In this document: positions 39,164 through 44,519 of the stretch, one piece after another
Numbering within the stretch: the stretch's first letter is position 1
Layout: every line of letters begins with the position of its first letter
Virus record (IMG/VR): IMGVR_UViG_3300025936_000020
Coordinates: 1-64,000 of that record
DNA from: a virus
Taxonomy: Duplodnaviria > Caudoviricetes
DNA: 64,000 nucleotides
Reading direction: 5' to 3' (one strand)
Notes under the pieces: model-generated
What the model was told of the DNA's origin: nothing
Database searches by the model: none
Seen by the model: only the letters and a program-made list of their open reading frames with translations
Position numbers and translations under genes: made by a program

Positions 39164-39708
39164 GACAGCCTGGATTGTTTCAATGCGAGATCTGGAGGCC
39201 CGTTCCAGGGTTCGAAGGATATTATGAAATTTCCTGTCACGGCAGGATACGGTCGTTTGTTCCGCCAAATGGCAAAGGGCAGTGCCGACAGCCTAAGATT
39301 CTTGGTCCCGGCAAGCCGCGCTGTTACAGGAACTTTGTGTTTCGACGGCCAGGTGCCAGATGGAGGATTGGAGTGCATATCCTCGTTGCCAGATTGTTCA
39401 TCGGTGTTCCGATGGGGTGCGGCCAGGATGCGGAGCCAAACCACCTTGACGGAGATAAGTCCAATAATCATGCGGACAACTTGGAGTGGACAAACAGATC
39501 CGGAAATATTCAGCACGCCTACGACATGGGCCTTTCGAAAAGCGGCGAACAACATCCCTACGCCAAATTAACTGAGGAGGAGGTCAGGCAAATCCGGTCG
39601 CTAAGAATGCAGGGCATCAGTCAGTCTCAACTGGCGTCCAGGTTCGGCGTCTCTCAGAGTCGAATCAGTTTCATCGAGCACAGAAAATCATGGAGAAAAG
39701 TATTATGA
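39160..39708 (+). CDS. NUMOD4-HNH endonuclease with C-terminal HTH
   Basis: EIWRPVPGFEGYYEISCHGRIRS...VHILVA...NHLDGDKSNNHADNLEW...KLTEEEV. Confidence 0.88.
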   Translation: MRQPGLFQCEIWRPVPGFEGYYEISCHGRIRSFVPPNGKGQCRQPKILGPGKPRCYRNFVFRRPGARWRIGVHILVARLFIGVPMGCGQDAEPNHLDGDKSNNHADNLEWTNRSGNIQHAYDMGLSKSGEQHPYAKLTEEEVRQIRSLRMQGISQSQLASRFGVSQSRISFIEHRKSWRKVL

Positions 39709-40934
39709 ACGACTCAAACAACCCATTCGCCATTGCCGCCCTTCAGAGCGGCAGCGTATCAATCGCCCAAAGCCGCGCTGCTCAGGAAGTGCAGGCAGCA
39801 ATGGTCATCGCCAAGAAGTTCCCCCGAAACGAAGAAGAGTGCATCGAGCGCATCCGCCGTTCGTGCAGTCGGCATTCTTTGGCAGAGGTCGCCACGTATG
39901 CTTACCCGCGCGGCGGGGCAACCGTCACCGGAGCCAGCATCCGACTGGCTGAATGCCTCGCGCAGAACTGGCAGAATATCGACTTCGGAATTGTCGAACT
40001 TGAGCAGCGCGATGGAGAGTCCACCGTGATGGCTTTCGCCCACGACTTGGAAACAAATTCAAGGCAGACCAAGATCTTTCAGGTCCGACACGAACGCCGA
40101 GTTGGGCGCGGCGATGACTTCCGAATCGACAAGCTGACGGACCCTCGGGACATTTACGAATTGGTAGCGAATCAAGGTGCTCGCCGCCTGCGGGCCTGCA
40201 TCCTCGGAATCATCCCTGGCGACGTGACAGACATAGCTTTGGATCAATGCGAGAAGGCACTGGCCAGCGGCAACAAAGAACCTTTGATTGATCGCGTCAG
40301 AAAGATGGCTGCTGCCTTCGGCGAGTTCGGTGTGGTGGTGGCAATGTTGGAACAGCGGCTCGGTCATAAACTGGAAGCAACCATCGAGCAGGAACTTGTC
40401 GGACTCCGCAAAATCTTCGTCAGCCTAAAGGATGGAATGAGCAAGCGCGAAGACTGGTTCGACGTTAACGCCGTCCCGATCACTCGCCCCAAGTTCGACC
40501 GCGACGAGAAAGAGGAATCCGCCGCCGGACTGGCACCAGCGCAACCCCAATCTCCGCCAGCCGAACAACCGAGGCGCGGGCGAAAGAAAGCGGCAGAGGC
40601 CCAAAGCAACGAGTCCCAGGCCGCAGCGCCCGCGCCTGTTCAGCAGGCGGCTGCTCCAGTAACACCAACGCCCGCCCAAGCGCCGGTTCCTGCACCTACT
40701 CCAGCTCCAGCCGCATCCCTGTTCCAAAGCCCGGCCTACACCCAGCTAAGGACCTGCATGACATCGAGCGGCGTCACGGATGCCGAACTGATCCAGCTCT
40801 GCCGGCATCGCGGCGTGATGACACCGCAGCAGGAGGAACTGATGCAGCTCTCCGATGCCACACTGACTGATCTCACGAACAACTGGACTATTATCGCCGG
40901 GCAAGTTCGGCAGGATCGGAGAAGGACGCAATGA
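39705..40934 (+). CDS. putative single-strand annealing/recombination protein
   Basis: AKKFPRNE...YAYPRGG...GASIRLAE conserved-looking domain and Pro/Ala linker; adjacent to the exonuclease. Confidence 0.6.
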   Translation: MNDSNNPFAIAALQSGSVSIAQSRAAQEVQAAMVIAKKFPRNEEECIERIRRSCSRHSLAEVATYAYPRGGATVTGASIRLAECLAQNWQNIDFGIVELEQRDGESTVMAFAHDLETNSRQTKIFQVRHERRVGRGDDFRIDKLTDPRDIYELVANQGARRLRACILGIIPGDVTDIALDQCEKALASGNKEPLIDRVRKMAAAFGEFGVVVAMLEQRLGHKLEATIEQELVGLRKIFVSLKDGMSKREDWFDVNAVPITRPKFDRDEKEESAAGLAPAQPQSPPAEQPRRGRKKAAEAQSNESQAAAPAPVQQAAAPVTPTPAQAPVPAPTPAPAASLFQSPAYTQLRTCMTSSGVTDAELIQLCRHRGVMTPQQEELMQLSDATLTDLTNNWTIIAGQVRQDRRRTQ

Positions 40935-41104: not shown

Positions 41105-41286
41105 ACGAAACACCACCCGAAGTACAGAACGCGGTCCTGATAGCTGGGGAATTAGCGGGACTGAGTTTCAAGTTAAACGCCGATGCACTCGAAAAGTGGC
41201 TCGACACGAAGCCCGAAGGATTCAATTACGAATCGTGGTGCCGTGCGGCCATTGCCTTCAAGCGGGCAGTCCATACCATCCTATGA
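41101..41286 (+). CDS. hypothetical protein
   Basis: 61 aa, ATGA overlaps. Confidence 0.6.
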   Translation: MNETPPEVQNAVLIAGELAGLSFKLNADALEKWLDTKPEGFNYESWCRAAIAFKRAVHTIL

Positions 41287-41531
41287 ACCCCGCCCTGTTC
41301 CGCCCATCGTCCATGCTCCGAAGATCGAAGTGTCCGGGGTCGATGGCTCTTGAATCAACGATCACGCAGATCGACGACGAAGACGAGTACCAAGCGGAAG
41401 GGAACTTATTGCATGCCCTGACAGCGGACCCGTTACAATCCAGGGCCGGGCTGGAACCCGCCCAGCTTGATCTTGTCGAGACCGTGGAGAAGGCGGAAGC
41501 TGAGTTTATCGAGAAGATCCTGAAACTTTGA
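41283..41531 (+). CDS. N-terminal part of a Cas4-like/DUF2800 PD-(D/E)XK exonuclease
   Basis: RPSSMLRRSKCPGS...AEGNLLH; ends CTT TGA C. Confidence 0.75.
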   Translation: MNPALFRPSSMLRRSKCPGSMALESTITQIDDEDEYQAEGNLLHALTADPLQSRAGLEPAQLDLVETVEKAEAEFIEKILKL

Positions 41532-41644
41532 CGCGAGGCGTCTGCTGGGCAGAAAGGGTTGGCGGTGGAGAAGTAGCCCTTCTCTCGCGCACCTGTCCAC
41601 CAGCCTGAAAGGTGAAAGGCGCACGAGAAACCGTCATAAAATCT

Positions 41645-41914
41645 ATGCACAAAGAACAACTGCTGGCCGCAGTGAATCTCGAACAAGAGGAACTGCCAAA
41701 AGACTGGGAGCTTCCAGTACACTGGGATATGACCTGCCTGATAGCAGTCATCGGAACGCTTCAACTCGCCATGCGCCATCCCCAGTTCAAGAAGCGGCCC
41801 ACGCATGCGATGATCCGGCAGGTCATCGATCAACTCATCGGCGGTATTCCGGAAAACATGCCAGCCACGCGCGAGCTGGCCCGGCTGGGAGACAATCCGA
41901 AGTACGATCTCTGA
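41645..41914 (+). CDS. hypothetical protein inside the exonuclease interruption
   Basis: MHKEQLL...IAVIGTLQLAMRHPQF; protein-like composition. Confidence 0.7.
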   Translation: MHKEQLLAAVNLEQEELPKDWELPVHWDMTCLIAVIGTLQLAMRHPQFKKRPTHAMIRQVIDQLIGGIPENMPATRELARLGDNPKYDL

Positions 41915-41916
41915 CC

Positions 41917-42768
41917 GTGCTGGACTACTTGGAAATCACCGAGCAGGAGTTCTCGCTGAAGCGTGGCGACAAGACCATTCTCAAGGGAACCCCGGACTCG
42001 GTGCGGGTGTATCACAGCCGGAACCGGGTGGCCGTCTTCGAGCGGAAGTTTGGATTCAAGGAGGTCCAGCCCGCCGATGCAAACTTGCAGCTGCGCACAT
42101 ACTTGGTGATGGTAGCCAGAACTTATCCAGCCGCCAATTACTATGGGTGCCTTACCCAGCCTAGAATCTCCTCCAAACCGCAGATCGTTCAGTACACCGA
42201 GGCTGAAATCTTCCAAGCCGAGGATGAGATCTTCCGGATTCACGACGCCTGCTACGGTGAAGATCCGCCGCGCCATGCGTCCAACGAAGCGTGCGAACAC
42301 TGTAGCGCCAAGGCCCTGTGCCCTGAGTTCGCCCAGTGGACATCGGCGGTGGTGAAGGCTCAGCATCTTCCGGTAGGACAATGGACCGACGCTCAGATGG
42401 AGACTTTCCTTTTGCGCCAAGGCATCCTGGTAAAGTTCATCAAGGATACTCTCGATCAGATCAAGCTCATCAAGCAGGCTAATCCAGAACGACTCCCCGG
42501 CTGGTCGTTCAAACCTGGGAACGAAGTCCGCACGGTGACGGACCTTGTTAAAGCCTGGAGCGCCCTCCAATCTCACATGAGCGCCCTGGAGTTCAGCGGT
42601 GAGTGCGACGTGAGCATCGGCGGTCTAGAGAAGGTGATCTGGCAGAAGCGCCAGGACGACCCATCGCTGGGCAAGCTGACGCAGAAGGGCGTGAAGGCGC
42701 TGGTGAACGATTTGTTGAAGGATGTGTTGGTCAAAAAAAAGAATCGGCCAAGTCTGGAGAAGGAATGA
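41917..42768 (+). CDS. C-terminal part of the Cas4-like PD-(D/E)XK exonuclease
   Basis: TEQEF, GTPD, ERKFG, QLRTY, CEHC..KALC. Confidence 0.8.
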   Translation: MLDYLEITEQEFSLKRGDKTILKGTPDSVRVYHSRNRVAVFERKFGFKEVQPADANLQLRTYLVMVARTYPAANYYGCLTQPRISSKPQIVQYTEAEIFQAEDEIFRIHDACYGEDPPRHASNEACEHCSAKALCPEFAQWTSAVVKAQHLPVGQWTDAQMETFLLRQGILVKFIKDTLDQIKLIKQANPERLPGWSFKPGNEVRTVTDLVKAWSALQSHMSALEFSGECDVSIGGLEKVIWQKRQDDPSLGKLTQKGVKALVNDLLKDVLVKKKNRPSLEKE

Positions 42769-43348: not shown

Positions 43349-43545
43349 GCACTAAATCTGTGAGGTTTGAATTGGAAGGGCAACACGTTCACGGCTCACA
43401 GTGGTCGGTTATCGAGATTCACACGACAGAAGGCGCAGCTCGAAAAGGTGAACGAGAGTATAGGAAGTTCAACTCCGCGCAAAAAGTCAAAGGGTGGCGT
43501 GGCTTTCGAGTGATGCAGGTAACAACAGTTCGGAAAGTATTATGA
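43345..43545 (+). CDS. hypothetical protein
   Basis: 66 aa, ATGA overlaps. Confidence 0.55.
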   Translation: MSTKSVRFELEGQHVHGSQWSVIEIHTTEGAARKGEREYRKFNSAQKVKGWRGFRVMQVTTVRKVL

Positions 43546-44519
43546 GCGAAGAACAACCCATCTCCCCACTGGGACCGAACAAGGCCCCGACCGTCGCCAA
43601 CTGGGTGGAGCAATACAAGGAACTGAACAAACATCGCTGGTCGTGGGGCCATCTTCAGATCGTCGATCTGGAGATGCGACGACTGGCGCTGTTCTTCGGC
43701 CCCAGGGAGTTCACGCCGCAGGTGCTCGCCGAGTTTTGGGCGGAGACCCATGCCAGGAAAGCGAAGCCGTGGACGATCCATAAGACGCTCAGGGAGGTCA
43801 GGACTTTCGTTCTGTGGCTCGACGCAATGGAGTTCGTGGATTACAAGAGATTCGCGAGCATCATCCGCGTGCCGCCCCCGCCTAAAGTAGCTGCGAAGAT
43901 CTTCACTGAGACCCAGTACGAGAGACTGAAGGCGGCGGCCAAGGGGACGTATTGGTACTACGCGGTGATCATGGCCTACAGGACCGGAGCGAGGTACTCG
44001 GACGTCGCGCTGCTGAAGTGGGAGAACGTGCATCTGGACGAATGCTACGTGCGCTATCTCCCGTTCAAAACCCGGAAGACGGGAAAGGAAGCCGTGTGCC
44101 CGTTCGATGTGGGCGGGGATCTGCACCAGGTCCTTCAGGAGATGAGCCTGTGCAAAGGCGCGAACCTGAATGGATGGGGGGCCTACGTCTGCCCGGACAT
44201 GGCCATGACCTATCCGGTCAACGGCGGAGCCTGCGGTGCCGGACCGCAGAAACGGCTTGCGTTCAAAACGCTTTGCGAGAAGAACGGATGCGCCGGCCTT
44301 TCATTCCACAAACTCAGAAACTCCTTCATGTCCCGGCTGGTCGGCAGCGGTGCGTCATATCCGCAAGCCACTCAGATCACCGGGTTGGCCACTACAGCGG
44401 TGTTCAACGCGTACGCCAAGCCGGACGTCGAAGCGCTCAGGAAGGTGGTGGAGAAGGCGGACAAAAAGGATGATCCGCCCACCGAGGGAACGATCATCAA
44501 ACTACCGGGGGCTGCATGA
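43542..44519 (+). CDS. tyrosine recombinase/integrase
   Basis: TGARYSD (R), KTRKT (K), FHKLR (HxxR), TGL, NAY (Y). Confidence 0.85.
   Translation: MSEEQPISPLGPNKAPTVANWVEQYKELNKHRWSWGHLQIVDLEMRRLALFFGPREFTPQVLAEFWAETHARKAKPWTIHKTLREVRTFVLWLDAMEFVDYKRFASIIRVPPPPKVAAKIFTETQYERLKAAAKGTYWYYAVIMAYRTGARYSDVALLKWENVHLDECYVRYLPFKTRKTGKEAVCPFDVGGDLHQVLQEMSLCKGANLNGWGAYVCPDMAMTYPVNGGACGAGPQKRLAFKTLCEKNGCAGLSFHKLRNSFMSRLVGSGASYPQATQITGLATTAVFNAYAKPDVEALRKVVEKADKKDDPPTEGTIIKLPGAA

Follow-up and report, generated by a model that had tools for sequence, protein, structure and literature searches.

Phage "genes in pieces" have been described for nrdA of phage Aeh1, which is divided by mobE, for the topoisomerase genes 39/60 of phage T4 with mobA, and for genes 43A/43B of Aeromonas phages (PMC2988022). 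The polypeptides encoded by such genes are thought to reassemble, as was shown for NrdA and gp43; the site of the 43A/43B split contains a seg gene in phage 25 and an intercistronic untranslated sequence in phage 44RR (PMC2988022). Another group of importance here is formed by the Cas4/AddB-type nucleases, in which one N-terminal and three C-terminal cysteines hold an iron–sulfur (Fe-S) "staple"; in Sso0001, the mutation of any single one of the four cysteines to alanine yields an insoluble protein (PMC3466216). The present analysis deals with a Cas4-like exonuclease gene located at positions 41283–42768 of a 64-kb stretch of viral DNA (hereafter, the window), which is part of the 74-kb IMG/VR virus record IMGVR_UViG_3300025936_000020, with an estimated completeness of 95%. 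The gene is divided into two open reading frames (ORFs) separated by an insert, and comparison with related phages strongly supports its interpretation as the gene of a two-polypeptide enzyme; it is probably a "gene in pieces" that carries cargo at the junction.

The locus consists of four adjoining features:

41283–41531, + strand: gene of the N-terminal piece (N-piece) of the split nuclease, 82 amino acids (aa), assigned by Pfam DUF2800, PHROG 69, homologs and the ratio of nonsynonymous to synonymous substitution rates (dN/dS)
41529–41647, + strand: structured non-coding element of about 120 nucleotides (nt), model R1, assigned by conserved copies and compensatory changes
41645–41914, + strand: cargo gene, "cassette A", 89 aa, predicted to be all-helical, assigned by homologs, invariant columns and dN/dS
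41917–42768, + strand: gene of the C-terminal piece (C-piece) of the split nuclease, 283 aa, assigned by Pfam DUF2800, Cas_Cas4 and PDDEXK_1, 45 homologs and dN/dS

The N-piece gene begins with the ATG at 41283, which overlaps the stop of an upstream 61-aa ORF (ATGA), and ends with AAA CTT TGA (stop at 41529–41531), the next base being C. The C-piece lies in the +1 frame relative to the N-piece, and this frame runs open from 41524 until its stop at 42766–42768. Deletion of the 385 nt from 41529 to 41913 would fuse the terminal K-L of the N-piece with T-V-L-D-Y-L-E; there is a T just before this stretch and a G as its last base, a 1-in-16 coincidence. The ORF in the third frame encodes 100 aa if counted from the GTG at 41612 and 89 aa if counted from the ATG at 41645; the ATG is the real start of cassette A, because the homologs of its product contain 89–92 aa. 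The initial annotation had described this locus as a Cas4-like nuclease interrupted by a 385-nt ORF-carrying insert, and all its statements on the sequence held when re-checked. It had left three options for the expression of the gene, of which the comparative data support the two-polypeptide split enzyme and contradict both frameshifting and RNA-level removal of the insert.

Profile searches assign both pieces to one nuclease family. Both matched PHROG 69 "exonuclease"; the N-piece matched positions 2–52 of the Pfam DUF2800 profile (21.3 bits, cut-off 21), and the C-piece matched positions 106–340 of the same profile (43.4 bits), as well as Cas_Cas4 (32.2 bits, cut-off 22.7) and PDDEXK_1 (28.2 bits, cut-off 22). 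The N-piece contains an invariant Cys17, corresponding to the N-terminal Fe-S ligand, and a helix with conserved E35/G40/H44; 30 columns are invariant in the alignment (A5) of the N-pieces and the N-terminal segments of two fused homologs. The C-piece contains motif II (D27), motif III (E-x-K44), Q58xxxY62 and C126-x2-C129-x5-C135. The motifs G24-x-P26-D27, E/D-x-K44 and Q58-L-R-x-Y62 are invariant across 33–42 homologs, and the residues C126, C129 and C135 are invariant as well. Cys17 of the N-piece and the CX2CX5C motif of the C-piece together make up the four-cysteine staple pattern, with metal binding predicted from the sequence. The RecB-like fold was judged on the AlphaFold 2 (AF2) model of P0032, a 51%-identical fused relative (predicted local distance difference test score, pLDDT, 77). 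This model matches RecE, AdnA/B, Cas4 SSO0001, MGME1 and lambda exonuclease (Foldseek probability 0.99–1.0), and the position of the split corresponds in it to the loop 80–85, with a helix (59–79) before and a strand (86–89) after. The nuclease thus resembles the Cas4/AddB and DUF2800 exonucleases in the PD-(D/E)XK core motifs, the 1+3 arrangement of cysteines, the profile matches above threshold and the fold; the known members are single-chain proteins, whereas here the N-terminal cysteine and the motif-I helix belong to a separate 82-aa polypeptide, and the Fe-S ligands and the active site would be shared across two chains.

About 35 related metagenomic contigs were fetched, and N- and C-pieces were placed by tblastn in about 30 loci. 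Both pieces recur in the relatives at 50–93% identity, and the split lies beyond chance, since it recurs in about 30 independent contigs; mis-assembly is argued against by the identical layout of independent contigs from other samples (L013, L016/L023 and L034). In about 25 split loci, a separate stop ends the N-piece and a separate start opens the C-piece. The C-piece search yielded 45 homologs, 42 of which were aligned; 33 of these 42 are 282–292 aa long and have an identical start residue, with identities from 100% down to 50%, and seven homologs (P0022, P0031, P0032, P0034, P0035, P0037 and P0039) are fused forms of 351–376 aa. The N-piece search revealed 26 stand-alone homologs of 72–107 aa. 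Alignment of the junction against uninterrupted homologs, proposed as a check in the initial annotation, indicated that the lengths of the pieces agree within 1–2 residues, and the end of the N-piece and the start of the C-piece lie at most a few residues from the site at which the fused homologs run on without a break. The fused homologs have a linker of 2–5 residues at the junction; they do not contain the segment of about 130 aa as ordinary coding sequence, a possibility that the initial annotation had raised against its own proposal. Nucleotide homology among the relatives ends exactly at the N-piece stop and returns exactly at the C-piece start. The distance between these two points is 385 nt in the window itself and, in relatives, −1, 3, 156, 175, 193, 358, 462, 488, 526, 701, 878, 898 or 1,214 nt. 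The shortest distances belong to two lineages split without any insert, where the pieces are separated by a TGATG overlap (−1 nt, L009) or by an in-frame TGA-ACA-ATG (3 nt, L020–22). In the latter arrangement (L020 2492–2503, likewise L021 and L022), one stop-codon change or TGA readthrough would yield a fused protein. Among isolated phages (INPHARED), the sole match was a 27%-identical Akkermansia phage, so no cultured relative was found, and no prophage relative was found among GTDB genomes.

Both pieces are under purifying selection, with dN/dS values of 0.07–0.19 for the N-piece and 0.11–0.16 for the C-piece. A scan of 1.8 billion representatives assigned 5,201 members to the family at E up to 0.001; outside the clade, nearly all of the top 150 members listed are 345–400 aa long, with the core beginning from residue 85–120, and the fused form is therefore the norm. 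In the C-piece tree, fused and split forms are interleaved, with at least five changes of state, a pattern compatible with re-fusion, with splitting on more than one occasion, or with recombination by which the junction state is moved. A permuted single-chain nuclease is also present in four contigs (L035 747–1856, L036 899–2005, L038 593–1297 and L042 5578–6723; proteins P0045 and P0046). It contains, in one frame, the first ~66–85 residues of the C-piece (with D and ExK), the whole N-piece module and then the remaining part of the C-piece; as this form occurs in four independent contigs, the N-terminal module behaves as a relocatable unit.

The slot between the pieces contains from none to four genes across the relatives, and these represent 11 or more ORF families unrelated to each other; tRNA-like genes and R1 occur in the slot as well. 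Cassette A is found in the slots of the window, L013, L016 and L034, cassette "B" (85–86 aa) in L005, L016, L019 and L037, cassette "C" in L016 and L034, and cassette "G" in L005 and L016; slot genes seen once occur in L002, L004, L017, L024, L029 and L037. The inserts of L002, L004 and L024 are occupied by an ORF throughout, with an ATGA overlap at the N-piece stop. L016 and L005 share 85–87% identity in cassettes G and B but only 51–65% in the nuclease pieces, and it is this excess of identity that shows the lateral movement of the cargo. In L005 (3103–3242) and L029 (1975–2120), a stretch of 140 nt beginning right from the N-piece stop is 86% identical and unrelated to R1, and forms a further conserved segment at the entry of the slot; the cargo downstream of it differs, with F, G and B in L005 and the 141-aa J in L029.

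Homologs of cassette A form nine clusters (89–92 aa, 58–88% identity) with 29 invariant columns, and dN/dS in its own frame is 0.06–0.18. Three of these clusters are located elsewhere, either next to genes for a DUF7694 protein and an integrase or next to one for an NTP-transferase, and this marks cassette A as an ordinary accessory gene of the free-standing kind. Its product had no match in Pfam or the ESM Atlas and a single weak match in PHROG (E 0.017); the AF2 model was of low confidence (pLDDT 66) and thereby unsuited to a fold search. Likewise, none of the ten other cargo proteins scored above a Pfam cut-off. No HNH, GIY-YIG or LAGLIDADG insert was thus recognised, the cargo gene of the window being without a Pfam match and that of the relatives below the cut-offs. 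Contig L004 contains a gene of 255 aa (1494–2261) with weak Pfam marks of the GIY-YIG/I-HmuI-NUMOD type, just upstream of a 409-aa gene discussed below; homing-endonuclease-type genes therefore circulate in this group of phages, and none is present in the nuclease slot.

These observations can be brought together as follows. An ancestral single gene of a DUF2800/Cas4-like PD-(D/E)XK exonuclease would have been cut at a point corresponding to a loop on the protein surface, past the helical N-terminal module and ahead of the first strand in the catalytic core, and the resulting polypeptides of 82 and 283 aa would reassemble. The N-piece would provide Cys17 and the E35/G40/H44 helix, and the C-piece would provide D27, E-x-K44, QxxxY and CX2CX5C. 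The 385 nt would be cargo, composed of R1 and an ordinary accessory gene of 89 aa, and would represent neither an intron nor a recoding spacer. The simplest mechanism for the swapping of slot contents would be recombination, plausibly homologous, between the conserved coding flanks. As to expression, the GTG of the C-piece has no Shine–Dalgarno (SD) sequence and lies 2 nt past the cassette A stop, and termination–reinitiation is for this reason the most likely mode of its translation. The loci examined comprise 15 distinct split layouts, and in every one of them the C-piece begins within 4 nt of an upstream stop or overlaps with it. Termination–reinitiation was likewise proposed for mobE behind nrdA (PMC2988022).

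The locus has several features in common with the described genes in pieces. In both cases inserted DNA divides an essential gene of DNA metabolism, uninterrupted in relatives, into two ORFs, and an inserted ORF may overlap the upstream stop, suggesting translational coupling; as in phages 44RR and 25, one and the same split site holds either an untranslated spacer or an ORF. Uninterrupted relatives exist, the pieces are collinear with them and complete, and each is under selection as a separate ORF. There are differences, however: none of the 11 cargo families is a homing endonuclease or reaches a Pfam cut-off; the slot is hypervariable within one clade (0–4 genes plus RNA genes); the split and fused states toggle, with the five or more changes on the tree mentioned above; and the host gene is a Cas4-like nuclease with the Fe-S ligands on different chains. 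Some points weigh against the two-polypeptide interpretation. The production and association of the two polypeptides are deduced from nucleotide sequences; the first 33 residues of the P0032 model, including the N-terminal cysteine, have a pLDDT below 50; a GTG start without an SD sequence could mean low expression of the C-piece; and the exact heptamer and the unbroken +1 frame of the window may leave room for low-level frameshifting in this one phage.

The non-coding part of the insert contains the R1 element, which takes up the untranslated stretch from the N-piece stop to the cassette A ATG. Copies with 79–84% identity are present in L016/L023 (L016 1284–1435), L019 (2118–2249), L034 (306–432), L037 (816–957) and L042 (3152–3276), and the covariance model found exactly six distinct copies, one per genome. 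R1 is composed of invariant strands alternating with two hairpins of variable length, with a long-range closing helix, and compensatory changes were found in seven of the 34 predicted pairs; the single sequence has an unexceptional minimum free energy (z = −0.4), and no Rfam family matched the element. Five of the six copies are followed within 3–15 nt by an ATG, which in four of these opens an identified gene that differs between the copies. R1 is not always adjacent to the N-piece: in L019 and L037, it lies 100–250 nt past the N-piece stop, and in L042, it follows the 458-aa counterpart of the neighbour gene described below, 2.4 kb upstream of the nuclease. No repeats of R1 were found in the window's own genome, where it is a single-copy element. 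A scan of viral contigs with the 5′ pattern of R1 added one genuine copy (L042), with L040 and L041 matching only in part, over 20 nt, and a scan of genome contigs revealed two chance matches within coding DNA (L043 and L044); the 3′ pattern gave no matches in viral contigs. No promoter-like or terminator-like sites were found on the + strand between 41500 and 41950. The candidate roles of R1 are those of a stable small RNA, of a leader for translation or processing, and of a DNA site. Just past the N-piece stop, tRNA-like genes are present in L037 (658–739), L017 (1464–1550), L013 (1373–1457) and L019 (2017–2117); they encode the CCA, have a T-arm and are oversized in the anticodon arm or loop. 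The gene of L037 scored 39 bits against the Rfam tRNA model, and that of L017 was called by ARAGORN. In L019, R1 directly follows the tRNA-like gene, which suggests co-processing.

The sequence CUU UGA C is the site of programmed +1 frameshifting in prfB, the gene of release factor 2 (RF2), and the identical heptamer at the end of the N-piece gene raises the question of whether a single 495-aa nuclease with a dual-coded insertion of 130 aa is made here. An off-frame stays open over such a length by chance in only about 3–5% of cases (about 3% of 390-nt off-frame segments in the long ORFs of this phage and 4.7% of synonymous resamplings of cassette A), and the open +1 frame is only mildly unusual. 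Against its use, the +1 frame contains a stop in all six other copies of cassette A. In L013, the closest of the relatives that carry this cargo gene in the slot (87–89% identity), a +1 shift hits a TAA after five codons, and the frame is also closed in L016 and L034. Unlike in prfB, there is no SD-like stimulator in the 30 nt upstream of CTT TGA C, and the site itself is not conserved, appearing in relatives as CTA TGA G/T, AAA TGA A, GTC TGA T, CGG TGA A, CTT TAA C or CTT TGA T/G; the frame of the C-piece with respect to the N-piece also varies among relatives (0, +1 or −1). The +1 translation of the insert is an Arg/Ser-rich junk sequence with no sign of purifying selection, since dN/dS between the cassette A copies is 2.7–5.4 in this frame versus the low values in their own frame, and the short linker of the fused homologs has no counterpart of it. 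Frameshifting as the way to the nuclease is thus very improbable. The exact RF2 heptamer and the open frame of 130 codons would then be a coincidence at this locus, which removes a tempting recoding annotation, and the comparative data show how such coincidences can be recognised. Removal of the 385 nt from the RNA, whether as a self-splicing intron or through cleavage and ligation, would also restore one in-frame nuclease mRNA, with the T before the insert and the G at its end, and the location of R1, a conserved structured RNA-like element, at the 5′ end of the insert could be taken in its favour. Searches against Rfam, nevertheless, revealed no group I, group II or ribozyme match in the window between 40800 and 43200 at E up to 10, and no intron or ribozyme in the relatives at E up to 5, the single match there being the tRNA in L037. 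The non-coding part of the insert comprises only about 113 nt, which is too short for any known self-splicing core. The position of R1 is not tied to the junction, as L019, L037 and L042 demonstrate; the all-coding inserts of L002, L004 and L024, insert lengths that are not consistently 3n+1, the varying relation of the frames, and the loci L009 and L020–22, split with no insert at all, also argue against splicing, which we consider scarcely probable.

The interruption of the nuclease gene by a foreign gene, together with the GTG start of the C-piece without an SD sequence, might alternatively mean that the gene is broken, the N-piece being a decaying remnant, and that either only the C-piece works or the nuclease is dispensable. 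This is improbable in view of the selection on the N-piece, with 30 invariant residues in a clade where identity goes down to about 57%, of its intactness wherever a split locus reaches far enough upstream, and of the need for the invariant Cys17 to complete the four-cysteine staple. A further way to a single nuclease is the joining of the pieces as proteins by a split intein, in the manner of the "fractured genes" known from metagenomes, where a free-standing ORF may be located between the split-intein halves (PMC2677866). Neither nuclease piece has a Pfam intein match, and the pieces consist wholly of nuclease sequence, with no extra segment of the N-intein (100 aa) or C-intein (35 aa) kind; the probability of this explanation is negligible. 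Translational bypass of the T4 gene 60 type was rejected, the sole matching landing codon (CTC at 41909) directly preceding a TGA and the relatives being without matched take-off and landing codons. Deletion between the direct repeats TGAC...TGAC was also rejected as the origin or exit of the insert; it would drop 383 nt and keep the stop, and the gene would not be restored.

For the preferred interpretation, a two-polypeptide nuclease with cargo at the junction, a more specific version can be proposed, in which the junction is not a tolerated scar but a selected cargo-docking site, where accessory genes, tRNA-like genes and R1 are exchanged between phages owing to the two strongly conserved coding flanks of a needed gene that enclose the slot. 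This version is speculative and rather unlikely. If it were true, the cargo would be hard to lose and automatically co-expressed, and the amount of the C-piece, and hence the assembly of the nuclease, would be set by the cargo translated just upstream; in a stronger form, R1 or the tRNA-like elements would be active in cargo mobility or in the processing of the slot mRNA. The variability of the slot has parallels in the T4-type hyperplastic regions and in the shuffling associated with promoter early stem-loop (PeSL) elements, where clusters of small ORFan genes also differ between close relatives through modular shuffling and cargo is common to otherwise divergent phages (PMC2839356, PMC4122927). 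Unlike in the PeSL systems, no repeated promoter–terminator cassette flanks the modules here, R1 being the only conserved non-coding element and single-copy in each genome, and, unlike the intergenic hyperplastic regions of T4-type phages, the variable region is located inside the coding span of a gene.

A hypervariable slot inside a conserved gene extends the concept of genes in pieces beyond the insertions of homing endonucleases, and accessory genes of uncultured soil phages, some possibly with anti-defence functions, may be sought in such a slot. A natural two-chain nuclease of the Cas4/AddB type, with an Fe-S staple and an active site that would span the subunit interface, would be a ready-made system for studying the roles of the cluster and the N-terminal module. 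In practical terms, gene callers and pangenome pipelines will mis-cluster such split genes (see PMC8351571).

Upstream of the nuclease, separated from it by two small ORFs, there is another conserved gene:

39690–40934, + strand: neighbour gene, 414 aa, assigned by PHROG 3657 and synteny

The product of this gene belongs to PHROG 3657 (function unknown; E 8e-100) and shows a weak Gp2.5-like match in its C-terminal part, with an acidic tail of the Gp2.5 kind. Genes of 409–458 aa occupy the same position in L002, L004, L005 and L042, and this synteny suggests that the neighbour may be a single-strand-annealing or single-stranded DNA-binding partner of the nuclease. About 700 nt downstream of the nuclease, a tyrosine-recombinase-like gene of 341 aa is located at 43494–44519, and both this gene and the 414-aa gene are syntenic in L004, L005 and L007.

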